Positions 8,747-17,439 of a DNA stretch of 17,533 nt are shown one piece after another. Each line of letters opens with the position of its first letter. Position 1 is the first letter of the stretch. Under the pieces are notes generated by a model that was given only the letters and a program-made list of their open reading frames with translations, did no database searches and had not been told where the DNA came from. Made by a program: the position numbers and the translations under genes. Location of the stretch: the IMG/VR virus record IMGVR_UViG_2711768056_000003, positions 1 to 17,533 of that record; one strand, given 5' to 3'. This DNA comes from a virus (Duplodnaviria; Heunggongvirae; Uroviricota; Caudoviricetes).

Positions 8747-8974
8747 TTATGCTGCCAGAAGGTTCTTTTTGCTTATTTCAAGCAATTCGCTTGCTTGATA
8801 TTTGCCACCAGAAATCTCTTCGATTTTTGAGGCGTATTTCGTTTTCCCAAAAAACTCAGTCTTAGGGAGGAAGCCGTTTTTGAGCCACTTATAGACAGCC
8901 CTTTCGCTAACTCCACAAGCCTTCGCAACTTCAGGGATGCCGACACCTTTAATCGGCTCATCAAGATTTTGCAT
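8747..8974 (-). CDS. cro: Cro-like repressor (HTH)
   Basis: 75 aa with HTH (IPEVAKACGVSERAVYKWLKNG); divergent from cI across the operator region; SD AAGGG upstream. Confidence 0.75.
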   Translation of the reverse strand: MQNLDEPIKGVGIPEVAKACGVSERAVYKWLKNGFLPKTEFFGKTKYASKIEEISGGKYQASELLEISKKNLLAA

Positions 8975-9053: not shown

Positions 9054-9761
9054 ATGGTTCAGAATGAAAAAGTGCGCAAAGAATTCGCCCAGCGGCTAGC
9101 GCAAGCCTGTAAAGAAGCTGGTCTTGATGAACATGGTAGGGGTATGGCCATAGCCCGTGCCCTTTCTCTTTCGTCCAAAGGCGTTAGCAAATGGTTTAAT
9201 GCTGAGTCTTTACCGCGTCAGGAAAAAATGAATGCGCTTGCGAAATTTCTAAACGTTGATGTTGTTTGGCTTCAGCACGGCACTTCGTTAAATGGAGCGA
9301 ATGATGAAGATACTCTTTCATTTGTTGGCAAATTAAAAAAAGGGTTAGTGCGCGTGGTTGGTGAGGCAATTCTTGGTGTTGATGGTGCCATCGAGATGAC
9401 CGAAGAGCGCGATGGGTGGCTCAAGATTTATAGTGATGATCCAGATGCCTTTGGTCTTCGTGTGAAAGGAGACAGCATGTGGCCCAGAATAAAATCAGGA
9501 GAATATGTACTCATTGAGCCTAACACCAAAGTATTCCCGGGTGATGAGGTGTTTGTCAGAACCATCGAAGGACACAACATGATCAAGATTCTTGGCTATG
9601 ACAGAGATGGAGAATACCAGTTTACAAGCATCAACCAAGACCACAGACCAATAACGTTGCCTTATCATCAAGTAGCAAAGGTGGAGTATGTGGCTGGTAT
9701 TCTGAAGCAGTCCCGCCATCTGGATGACATCGAGGCAAGGGAGTGGCTGAAAAGTTCGTGA
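9054..9761 (+). CDS. cI: CI prophage repressor (N-terminal HTH + C-terminal LexA/S24-like autocleavage domain)
   Basis: 235 aa; N-terminal HTH; C-terminal domain with GDSMWP serine motif and downstream lysine typical of S24 self-cleaving repressors; divergent from cro. Confidence 0.9.
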   Translation: MVQNEKVRKEFAQRLAQACKEAGLDEHGRGMAIARALSLSSKGVSKWFNAESLPRQEKMNALAKFLNVDVVWLQHGTSLNGANDEDTLSFVGKLKKGLVRVVGEAILGVDGAIEMTEERDGWLKIYSDDPDAFGLRVKGDSMWPRIKSGEYVLIEPNTKVFPGDEVFVRTIEGHNMIKILGYDRDGEYQFTSINQDHRPITLPYHQVAKVEYVAGILKQSRHLDDIEAREWLKSS

Positions 9762-9878
9762 CTTCATCGTCACATAGCTGGTAACCAATGGCCTGAAGAG
9801 ACGTTTGGGTGATATATGTGAAATGCATATATTGATATAAATGCAGCAATATCAAATAGTTAAAAGGTTATATTTTTA

Positions 9879-10259
9879 ATGAATGATCTTGATAAGAAAA
9901 AGTACGACCAAGTTATTGATTCTGTGAACTTCGCCCTTAGATCGTTGTCAGAGTTATTCGAAGCCCATGGAATGCATGGGATGTATGATCTAACGAATCC
10001 AAGCCTTGATGAGCTAAAATTAGTGTTTACAAGGATGAAAAACGGTGTTGACTCTATTGCTCAAAGCTTTGAGCACATGGTAGAGACAGCAAAGGATATG
10101 GATGCCGCAAGTGCAAGCATAAATGTTATGAACATCAAACAAGGATTGATGTATGCTGAATCACTATTGCTTGCTGTAGAGAAATTAGACTATGATAAAT
10201 GTGTGGAAGCAAATACGCAGATAAAAACCCACGATCTTCCACCAACCCAATGGCCTTAA
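9879..10259 (+). CDS. Hypothetical 126-aa protein in the rex position (candidate lysogen-expressed cargo gene)
   Basis: ORF directly downstream of cI on the same strand, in a visibly AT-rich segment; predicted soluble, helical; no family recognised. Confidence 0.6.
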   Translation: MNDLDKKKYDQVIDSVNFALRSLSELFEAHGMHGMYDLTNPSLDELKLVFTRMKNGVDSIAQSFEHMVETAKDMDAASASINVMNIKQGLMYAESLLLAVEKLDYDKCVEANTQIKTHDLPPTQWP

Positions 10260-10328
10260 TAGTAAATCAAGATTTCATATAGTCTATTTGAACTAGGCTA
10301 GTACCATAAAATAAACCGAGGAAACGCA

Positions 10329-10430
10329 ATGAAAACCATGTCCACTCTGCACAAAGATGCAATGACCCTGAGATCTCTCATTAACGAGATTCTGGCTCGC
10401 TCGTCAGCACACACCAAAAAAGCCGCATAA
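10329..10430 (+). CDS. Small hypothetical ORF (33 aa) downstream of the 126-aa gene
   Basis: Hand-translated MKTMSTLHKDAMTLRSLINEILARSSAHTKKAA; SD GAGGA 7 nt upstream; followed within 11 nt by an intrinsic terminator. Confidence 0.4.
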   Translation: MKTMSTLHKDAMTLRSLINEILARSSAHTKKAA

Positions 10431-10440
10431 TGCCTACATA

Positions 10441-10469
10441 ACCCGGCCTCAGCGCCGGGTTTTCTTTGC
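10441..10469 (+). terminator. Rho-independent terminator closing the cI-side (immunity) transcription unit
   Basis: ACCCGGC-cucagc-GCCGGGU (7-bp GC-rich stem) followed by TTTTCTTT. Confidence 0.7.
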
Positions 10470-10636
10470 CTCACGATCGCCCTCCCATATTTAATAGCCG
10501 CAAATGTGGTAAACCGCGAACCAACTCACCAGCAATAACCACTCCAACTACAGACCAATCTGCAGCATTTACAAAAATAAATTTCCTTATATATCAAAAT
10601 CATATATCGCAGCATTAATAAATCACAAAATTTCGT

Positions 10637-10676
10637 ACCAATAGTTCTTGATAATGTCGAACTATTGGTTCATTAT
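10637..10676 (+). promoter_or_regulatory. Candidate pL promoter overlapped by a perfect inverted repeat (candidate operator)
   Basis: -35 TTGATA (10648..10653), 17-bp spacer, -10 CATTAT (10671..10676); 11-bp perfect inverted repeat ACCAATAGTTC (10637..10647) / GAACTATTGGT (10659..10669) spans the -35 and spacer; TTTCGTAC upstream shares an 8-mer with OR. Confidence 0.45.
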
Positions 10677-10866: not shown

Positions 10867-11139
10867 ATGTCCAGAAAAACAGAATTTAAAGGCACCGCAG
10901 CTTCTCGCCGTAGAGCTCGTCGTGCAAATCTGCAAAGTCAGGAGGCGATCAGCTCCGACAAGCTACACAGGCCAACCCCTTCACGAGTGGTCTTGCAATG
11001 CAAGCGCAAACCAGCAATGAGAGCAGAAGTAATAACACTGACAACGTTGACCAGAAAATATGAAGGCTCAACTTGTCTTCCAAACGTAGCTCTTTACGCG
11101 GCAGGCTACCGTAAATCCAAACAACTGACAGCGAGGTAA
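10867..11139 (+). CDS. N: N-like transcription antiterminator (arginine-rich motif)
   Basis: Start at MSRKTEFKGTAASRRRARRANLQ with ARM resembling lambda/P22 N; SD GGGAGG upstream; first gene after pL/nutL. Confidence 0.75.
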   Translation: MSRKTEFKGTAASRRRARRANLQSQEAISSDKLHRPTPSRVVLQCKRKPAMRAEVITLTTLTRKYEGSTCLPNVALYAAGYRKSKQLTAR

Positions 11140-11141
11140 TT

Positions 11142-11594
11142 ATGGATTTAAGTAAATTAGAAAGCTCTTTGGAAGCATCAGTAAAAAAATTTATATCAGT
11201 AATTGATGAAAAAACTGAAGATATTAAGAAAGCAAATATTATCGAACTTGTAGAAACAAGAACCAGCACATTTGAACATCTTCCTGATGATGTCCGGTCA
11301 GCGGCAATTCACGTATATGTAACGGCACTAAGCAATATTGAACCCCCAATTGATGAAGAATCAAGAGATATTCAGAGAAAACGACTTGAAATGTTAGCCA
11401 GCAACATTATCGCTGGTTTCACACGGCTCTTAGCAAAAAAGCCTGCCAGTGAAGCTATTCGCCAGCAGGCTCAGGTAATGATTAATCAGGCAGAAACTAT
11501 TTCACGTGAGCGAAAAGCATTTGATAAATCGGTTTCTGAACTTCCAACACCTCAACCGCAGCCGCTGAACCTTCCTTCTCAACAAACTGAATAA
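11142..11594 (+). CDS. Hypothetical 150-aa protein, translationally coupled to N (ral/sieB position)
   Basis: Starts 2 nt after the N stop with SD GAGG; AT-rich 5' half; C-terminal 98 bp overlap a convergent minus-strand ORF. Confidence 0.5.
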   Translation: MDLSKLESSLEASVKKFISVIDEKTEDIKKANIIELVETRTSTFEHLPDDVRSAAIHVYVTALSNIEPPIDEESRDIQRKRLEMLASNIIAGFTRLLAKKPASEAIRQQAQVMINQAETISRERKAFDKSVSELPTPQPQPLNLPSQQTE

Positions 11595-12386: not shown

Positions 12387-12557
12387 ATGCAACAGTTCGC
12401 TATTGCAGGGGCGGCATCGGTTCGCCCTTTCAACCCGATTTTATCGGTACAGCATTCACGAAAAAATATTTTAACCGGAGCAGACTTTAAACAACCAAGA
12501 ATGAAAAGTTTGCTCGAAAAGCTTTGGGATATTTTGAAACAACAAGGCCGTCCATGA
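12387..12557 (+). CDS. cIII: CIII-like protein (FtsH/HflB inhibitor protecting CII)
   Basis: Hand-translated 56 aa MQQFAIAGAASVRPF...LLEKLWDILKQQGRP; N-terminal MQ.AIAG and C-terminal L.DIL.Q.G.P parallel lambda CIII; SD AAGGAG. Confidence 0.65.
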   Translation: MQQFAIAGAASVRPFNPILSVQHSRKNILTGADFKQPRMKSLLEKLWDILKQQGRP

Positions 12558-17013: not shown

Positions 17014-17181
17014 ATGCACTTCCGAGTCACAGGTGAATGGAATGGAGAACCATTCAACAGAGTTATCGAAGCAGAGGACATCAACGACTGCTATAACCAC
17101 TGGATGATATGGGCGCAGATAGCGCATGCAGACGTAACCAATATTCGAATTGAAGAACTGAAAGAACACCAAACCGCCTGA
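17014..17181 (+). CDS. Small hypothetical ORF (55 aa)
   Basis: MHFRVTGEWNGEPFNRVIEAEDINDCYNHWMIWAQIAHADVTNIRIEELKEHQTA; SD GGAG upstream; stop codon sits inside a terminator hairpin. Confidence 0.4.
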   Translation: MHFRVTGEWNGEPFNRVIEAEDINDCYNHWMIWAQIAHADVTNIRIEELKEHQTA

Positions 17182-17196
17182 TGGCGGTTTTTTATT
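17171..17196 (+). terminator. Rho-independent terminator
   Basis: AAACCGCC-ugau-GGCGGUUU followed by TTTTTATT. Confidence 0.65.
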
Positions 17197-17238
17197 GCCT
17201 GATTTGCAGGTTCGATTCCCTATTCGGAGATAGCACTC

Positions 17239-17439
17239 ATGCAACACGAACTACAGCCTGATTCACTGGTTGATTTGAAATTCATCATGGCCGATACTGG
17301 CTTTGGTAAAACCTTCATCTATGACCGGATTAAGTCCGGCGACCTTCCTAAAGCCAAAGTTATCCACGGACGAGCAAGATGGTTATATCGTGACCATTGT
17401 GAATTTAAAAATAAGCTCTTAAGCCGCGCCAATGGGTAA
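17239..17439 (+). CDS. xis: Excisionase (Xis/AlpA-family HTH)
   Basis: 66 aa small basic winged-helix-like protein at the end of the early-left operon, where xis precedes int. Confidence 0.65.
   Translation: MQHELQPDSLVDLKFIMADTGFGKTFIYDRIKSGDLPKAKVIHGRARWLYRDHCEFKNKLLSRANG

Follow-up and report, generated by a model that had tools for sequence, protein, structure and literature searches.

The window analysed here is the whole of a 17,533-nucleotide (nt) viral stretch (IMG/VR record IMGVR_UViG_2711768056_000003; Caudoviricetes) that constitutes the immunity region of a lambdoid prophage, and within it positions 9813-10482 form a cassette of two genes that moves horizontally as a "moron". As aligned against lambda, this cassette has taken the place of rexA-rexB exactly, between the repressor gene cI and the terminator tImm. 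It encodes an acidic helical protein of 126 amino acids (aa), here called ORF126 (ORF, open reading frame), followed by a basic 33-aa peptide, ORF33; both are real genes under purifying selection that are always inherited together. An initial annotation of this DNA had singled out the locus as a possible superinfection-exclusion or abortive-infection module, and the cassette emerges from the present analysis as a good candidate for a phage-exclusion module. We favour, at a probability of roughly 0.35, a toxin-antitoxin-like exclusion or abortive-infection system in which a labile peptide would serve as the neutralizer.

Alignment to lambda places both edges of the cassette precisely. Homology runs through the last codons of cI, breaks off at its stop codon and is picked up again at the block formed by the rexB stop and tImm, and the rex position proposed in the initial annotation is therefore literally correct. 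The right edge (10438..10482, + strand), which holds the terminator and the block common with lambda tImm, is 100% identical to lambda 35784-35828, and its counterpart is annotated in HK542 and 933W as the terminator of the maintenance transcript. The gene upstream of the cassette is a cI repressor of the 933W immunity type (9054..9761, + strand; Peptidase_S24 and HTH_3 in Pfam), identical to 933W cI at 233 of 235 residues (99%). At the left edge of the cassette, and brought in with it, lies a 33-nt remnant (9780..9812, + strand; ..QWPEETFG, stop at 9810-9812) that derives from the 3' end of a lambda-type cI gene; it can be aligned with the terminal codons of lambda cI as well as with loci that carry the cassette behind a lambda-type cI. 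Most copies in Escherichia coli do follow a lambda-type cI ending in ..QWPEETFG, whereas the window copy follows a 933W-type cI, and the relic is a trace left by the recombination event that brought the cassette to its present place. The junctions are sharp (~9794-9796 and 10463-10473) and occur beside three cI types. The cargo is also set apart by base composition, as the initial annotation had observed: no 625-bp stretch of the window has a lower G+C content than positions 9813-10437 (37.6%; window mean 46.5 ± 3.5%), which fall in the lowest 0.1% among 625-bp windows.

The same slot, closed by the same terminator, is occupied by rexAB in lambda, by L0084-L0083-stk-L0081 in 933W and by two unrelated ORFs in HK542. 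The suggestion that lambdoid phages other than lambda keep exclusion or defence genes here is thus borne out for 933W. Rex and Stk are described as prophage abortive-infection systems, and Stk has been reported to block HK97 (PMC6356687). Compared with lambda rexA-rexB, the cassette sits in the identical slot from the cI stop to tImm, between the same flanks, and likewise consists of two genes co-oriented with cI. In contrast, there is no kinship in sequence or structure, identity to lambda DNA is confined to the flanks, and RexB spans the membrane several times and RexA has 279 aa, whereas both cassette products are soluble and one has only 33 aa. The relationship to the 933W stk locus is similar, as cI is 99% identical, the slot is the same and the terminator is near-identical, but a kinase stands there in place of a helical bundle and a peptide, and no homology connects them. 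Judged by sequence, the cassette stands in the place of RexAB and Stk and is a member of neither family. As a third, unrelated cargo between the same flanks, it shows the slot to be a swap-in hotspot with conserved recombination anchors, namely the cI 3' end and tImm. Variable cargo in this repressor-proximal position is already expected by specialists. The terminator stem ACCCGGC..GCCGGGT is retained after the peptide gene in copies ranging from E. coli to Aeromonas (window 10440-10470; loci L003, L004, L005, L008, L009, L012, L028 and L053) and is identical to that of lambda tImm and 933W tM, suggesting that the terminator may travel with the cargo as the right-hand recombination anchor.

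The two genes of the cassette form a strict pair. A small ORF of 32-37 aa lies directly 3' of the large ORF in 13 of 13 diverged lineages, down to 36% identity, the two being adjacent, co-oriented, 25-85 nt apart and strictly co-inherited throughout; the co-occurrence proposed as a check in the initial annotation is thus complete in the lineages examined. These lineages comprise E. coli, an 85% relative, Pectobacterium, Klebsiella, a Klebsiella-like metagenome lineage, Pantoea, Cronobacter, a lambdoid nin-region copy, Aeromonas phages, two Proteus-type lineages and two Xenorhabdus species. With synonymous sites saturated, the ratio of nonsynonymous to synonymous substitution rates (dN/dS) is 0.06-0.09 for the large protein and 0.12-0.35 for the peptide. 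The partners carry opposite charges in the five lineages compared, from -8 to -11 for the large protein and from +1.6 to +5.5 for the peptide. Disruption of one partner is seen at few loci: the large ORF is broken beside an intact peptide gene at two (L027 and L047), and the sole disrupted peptide gene, on a metagenome contig (L011), owes its state to a one-base change in an A-run and is a dubious case.

ORF33 (10329..10430, + strand) is preceded by the Shine-Dalgarno (SD) sequence GAGGA (10318..10322, + strand), read from the sequence six nt before the ATG and in line with the good SD ascribed to it by the initial annotation. The peptide is basic, with an isoelectric point (pI) of 10.4, and consists of an amphipathic helix followed by a basic tail; its maximum 19-residue hydropathy is 0.25 and its grand average of hydropathy (GRAVY) is negative. 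The most conserved part is the C-terminus, an invariant [K/R/Q][K/R][A/V]A that is KKAA in the window and occurs as KKAA, KKVA, KRAA, RKAA or QKAA across the family. The ClpXP C-motifs include those of ssrA (..LAA), YbaQ (RAKKVA) and MuA (RRKKAI) (PMC9775585 Table 2), and the peptide end resembles C-motifs 1 and 2, a resemblance of motif only. PGAP does not annotate ORF33, and the RefSeq record holds no coding sequence at this place. The missing call and the very short length could mean that only ORF126 is a gene, with ORF33 a chance frame in a 3' untranslated region or in a small RNA that ends at the terminator; Rfam finds nothing in the cassette region at E <= 1, which is compatible with an RNA of unknown type. 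However, the small frame is intact in all 13 lineages and keeps its length, its strong SD and the same amino-acid pattern at every homologous locus; its dN/dS stays low at saturated synonymous sites, and the annotation of Aeromonas phage AsXd-1 includes it, as do the gene calls of several assemblies, all of which makes a chance frame scarcely credible.

ORF126 (9879..10259, + strand; phrog_16322; WP_021539111.1) is acidic (pI 4.8, charge -8) and soluble, with a maximum 19-residue Kyte-Doolittle hydropathy of 0.81 and a negative GRAVY. Its AlphaFold (AF2) model, built from a 26-sequence alignment, has a predicted local distance difference test score (pLDDT) of 90 and a predicted template modelling score (pTM) of 0.82 and describes an up-and-down four-helix bundle with predicted helices at residues 3-36, 43-71, 74-101 and 105-117, in agreement with the soluble helical protein anticipated by the initial annotation. 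Conservation is concentrated in the loop after helix 1 (G31, G34, P41) and in the middle of helix 3 (N85, Q88, G89), with D104, C108 and a C-terminal Trp conserved in addition, and no catalytic signature is apparent among these positions. Fold searches returned generic helical bundles only and no informative relative. The best sequence-profile match in the PDB, a marginal one (E 0.026) between residues ~12-98 and the C-terminal helical domain of the Hmd-related protein MJ1338, includes the common stretch 'G-[IM]-E-G-M ... N-P-x-L' and is probably due to chance. A single-sequence word search of 5.8 billion proteins yielded 23 clusters at 90% identity and a profile search of 1.84 billion representatives yielded 18 representatives; every member found is a single-domain protein of 109-134 aa, and neither search reached beyond members of the same size to an annotated family. 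The family founded by ORF126 is rare and uncharacterised. The SD of ORF126 is poor. Several public annotations (P0021-P0023; L050, L053 and L054) call the large gene as 73-75 aa from the internal Met53, probably because of the weak SD at the true start. Decay of a toxin, considered as an explanation for these short homologues, was rejected, since they are mis-starts at Met53 and the full 125-aa frame is intact and conserved.

The consistent acidity of ORF126, whose homologues have a pI of 4.5-4.8 in every lineage tested, together with its all-helical make-up, recalls some DNA-mimic anti-restriction proteins and raises the idea of a counter-defence pair in which the bundle would act as a DNA or protein mimic inhibiting a host defence or nuclease. 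For a DNA mimic, however, -8 to -11 is a modest net charge, and no known mimic was matched by fold. Moreover, a gene pair placed after the lysogeny repressor should be expressed by the prophage and not early in infection, and the obligatory basic partner would be left unexplained. We therefore consider a counter-defence role quite improbable.

Neither protein could be assigned to a known family, as the initial annotation had already noted. Pfam, NCBIfam and PADLOC gave no match for either protein, including no domain in ORF33; PADLOC-DB v2.0.0 returned zero families at E <= 10 for both, and among PHROGs the only match was phrog_16322, of unknown function. A tblastn search of phages with ORF33 gave just two matches, each at E = 0.1 and in unrelated virulent phages, and searching the literature for the accession, the peptide strings and the PHROG identifier returned nothing. 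Two specific kinships were considered and rejected. Comparison with the tomB-hha and ymoB-ymoA pairs gave hhalign probabilities of 0.7% for the large and 0.5% for the small partner; Hha has 72 aa and four helices compared with the single helix of the 33-aa ORF33, and the YmoB fold match of ORF126 is generic, being no better than those of dozens of unrelated bundles. Likeness of ORF33 to FtsH inhibitors of the lambda cIII type was also discarded (hhalign probability 0.5%, no Pfam match).

The distribution of the cassette is sporadic and mobile. It is present in 32 of 5,426 complete E. coli genomes, once per genome, always on the chromosome and at least 99.5% identical, where the copies follow at least three different cI genes. 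Among GenBank E. coli phages it is absent, the sole relative in a phage record being that of Aeromonas phage AsXd-1 at 46% identity, and no homologue was found on the plasmids searched. IMG/VR contributed 32 viral loci, and a set of species-representative genomes added Proteus and Xenorhabdus. The pair directly follows cI in the same orientation in three lineages (E. coli, that of L028, and Proteus) and the P22-type maintenance repressor gene mnt in one, a P22-like Pectobacterium prophage. In Klebsiella and Cronobacter prophages it lies at the tail-fibre end, adjoining umuDC and host DNA, and the remaining contexts are the nin region and, in AsXd-1, the interval between the tail genes and int. 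In its choice of sites the pair behaves as a moron, one with a repeated tendency to settle downstream of a lysogeny repressor gene. Morons, as conceived from HK97 and HK022, are extra genes equipped with their own promoter and terminator. The cassette shares with lambdoid morons an atypically low G+C content, its own terminator, presence/absence polymorphism and the use of several accessory slots, but the window copy differs in having neither a convincing promoter of its own nor the conserved box that precedes other copies. Architecturally it is a moron in every respect except a demonstrable promoter of its own.

These neighbourhoods bear on a further explanation, namely that the cassette serves lysogenic conversion or regulation unrelated to exclusion, acting on host physiology, on a protease (with the peptide as a competitive ClpXP substrate) or on prophage induction. 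Morons often carry fitness factors rather than defences, genes of the S24-family SOS type adjoin the pair (cI in three lineages, umuDC in the Klebsiella and Cronobacter prophages), and an end resembling a ClpXP tag would suit a protease decoy equally. The neighbours nevertheless vary widely, from the nin region and immI to tail-fibre and int-proximal positions, indicating that the cassette acts independently of any one of them, and two characterized occupants of the rex slot, Rex and Stk, are exclusion systems. We hold a purely conversion-related or regulatory role to be unlikely.

How the window copy is transcribed is suggested by what surrounds its leader. The 66-nt leader of ORF126 (9813..9878, + strand; 19.7% G+C) does not vary among the E. 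coli copies, regardless of the cI gene that precedes it. The initial annotation had described 9800-9878 as promoter-like; much of this supposed promoter region is explained by the lambda cI relic at 9780-9812, and the sole sigma-70-like match in the leader (TTGATA-17-AATAGT, 9832-9860, 9/12) is not above chance, with 6 sites compared to 5.0 ± 2.1 in shuffled sequences. No terminator-like site is present between cI and ORF126 on the + strand, so the cassette more probably rides on the cI transcript from pRM/pRE. We infer that the window cassette is the distal part of a cI operon that would extend from pRM/pRE to tImm and be transcribed in the lysogen. At the other end, the intrinsic terminator reported earlier is indeed present (+ strand), with a stem-loop at 10440-10461 and a T-run to 10470. 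A terminator follows the peptide gene in 12 of 13 lineages, none being apparent just 3' of the peptide in the rearranged Xenorhabdus budapestensis locus L047, where the large ORF is truncated. It is of the ACCCGGC..GCCGGGT type in the Enterobacteriaceae, Pectobacterium, Pantoea and Aeromonas copies and a different GC-rich one in those of Proteus and Xenorhabdus kozodoii.

Between the two genes, an intercistronic hairpin with a 7-bp stem (10280..10300, + strand) is weak in the window copy (-5.4 kcal/mol, z +0.5). In other lineages, all ten long spacers examined contain a hairpin 20-30 nt beyond the large-ORF stop codon; these hairpins are unrelated in sequence, some (L028, L008, L005) are accompanied by a T-run, and by partial termination or RNA processing they may adjust how much of each product is made. 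Stand-alone copies in other genera have in common a non-coding box of ~50 bp located 5' of the large ORF (L003 5787-5839; also L053, L008 and L012), with the sequence AAAGTTTGTTT..TTTGCCG(A/T)TTTTATGGG(T)ATA. This box is 80% identical between an Aeromonas phage and a Cronobacter prophage despite saturated synonymous sites, and the only sigma-70-like match at it is on the opposite strand (TCGGCA-16-TATGAT). The window copy is without the box, and no third conserved gene was found upstream of the stand-alone copies.

Several of these features taken together lead us to favour an exclusion module gated by its peptide: the slot shared with RexAB and Stk, the strict linkage of the two genes, their opposite charges, the stronger SD of the peptide gene, its protease-tag-like end, and the loss of the large ORF at L027 and L047 set against the doubtful peptide disruption at L011. 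In such a module the lysogen would express the cassette from the far end of the cI operon, in the way lambda expresses rexAB, and the acidic bundle and the basic amphipathic helix would form a complex, as their complementary charges suggest. ORF33 would be made in excess over ORF126, given its strong SD and the poor SD of its partner, and would be short-lived, given an invariant C-terminus that looks like a ClpXP degradation tag. The labile peptide would hold the bundle protein in an inactive state. Infection by a phage that turns off host gene expression, or that upsets the pair in another way, would let the peptide decay, and the freed bundle protein would then block a step needed by the invader or by the cell.

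The closest formal parallel to this arrangement is found in toxin-first type II toxin-antitoxin or abortive-infection pairs with a protease-labile antitoxin, of which rnlAB is an example. The cassette resembles them in its two small, probably co-transcribed genes, in a downstream product with the stronger SD and a protease-tag-like end, and in being prophage-borne, mobile and sporadically distributed. It is unlike them in that neither protein is homologous to toxin or antitoxin families, in that the bundle has no enzymatic fold, and in that the putative antitoxin is a 33-aa peptide lacking a DNA-binding domain, leaving out the autoregulation typical of type II antitoxins. Other considerations also weigh against the proposed exclusion module. 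The case for defence is drawn solely from position and architecture, the Pfam, NCBIfam and PADLOC searches matched no known toxin, antitoxin or defence family, and many morons are not defence genes. In the absence of a catalytic motif and with a predicted fold of generic bundle type, ORF126 looks more like a binder than a toxin. The degron is a resemblance of motif only, and the counts behind the asymmetric decay are tiny (two loci versus one).

An alternative is the reverse polarity, in which the 33-aa peptide would be the active agent, binding and inhibiting a host or phage machine, and the acidic bundle its antidote or chaperone. Small inhibitory peptides such as Kil and cIII are familiar from phages, and the antidote-first order is that of canonical antitoxin-toxin operons and of tomB-hha. 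The missing catalytic signature in ORF126 would suit an antidote, and the opposite charges fit a sequestering role. This polarity is nonetheless at odds with the lack of sequence kinship to TomB/Hha or lambda cIII at the hhalign probabilities given above, with a YmoB match that does not stand out from unrelated bundles, and with the loci at which one partner has been lost, since it is the large ORF that is broken there (L027, L047). A strong SD coupled to a degron-like end is also better suited to a neutralizer of high synthesis and fast turnover, and a peptide toxin is thus an unlikely solution in our view.

The peptide-gated exclusion module can be carried one step further. The pair may conceivably found a new family of abortive-infection or exclusion systems, in which a ClpXP-tagged 33-aa peptide would act as a decay timer restraining a non-enzymatic bundle effector, interchangeable with RexAB and Stk and distributed as a self-contained cassette across the Enterobacterales and Aeromonas phages; we regard this fuller proposal as doubtful, and if it were true ORF33 would be among the smallest protein antitoxins known. 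More conservatively, the cassette belongs with the exclusion or moron cassettes of repressor operons, its components being protein families not described before, and an exclusion function would be suggested by its place and layout. The cargo is in any case a very compact (~0.6 kb) undescribed two-protein system, one component of which, at 33 aa, is missed by standard annotation. Should it exclude phages, it would represent a new minimal defence family and a tractable model of defence gated by a labile peptide; should it not, it would still be a strictly conserved protein-peptide pair in prophages of pathogens such as E. coli, Klebsiella and Cronobacter.

The remainder of the window is consistent in layout with a lambdoid immunity region. 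The gene cro (8747-8974) is divergent from cI, a pL-like site lies at 10648-10676, and N (10867-11139, + strand) is identified by its N_peptide match (E 3e-32). A near-identical prophage is integrated beside tRNA-Thr/proA in E. coli TL20 (99.9% over 1 kb). Past ~10620 the window diverges from this otherwise near-identical prophage, a mosaicism that sets in just beyond the immunity region. Directly after N lies a 150-aa ORF (11142-11594, + strand) at a second AT-rich patch (35% G+C at 11101-11400); it has no significant match in Pfam, PHROGs, NCBIfam or PADLOC, all being sub-threshold at E >= 0.01, and could be a further accessory or moron gene of the early-left operon. A 56-aa ORF (12387-12557, + strand) with the cIII-like core ..SLLEKLWDILKQQ.. 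appears to be the cIII of this prophage. Finally, positions 17162-17289 (- strand) give a sub-threshold Rfam match to the enterobacterial small RNA STnc130 (32 bits against a gathering score of 55, E 0.19), and this stretch closes with a good terminator hairpin.

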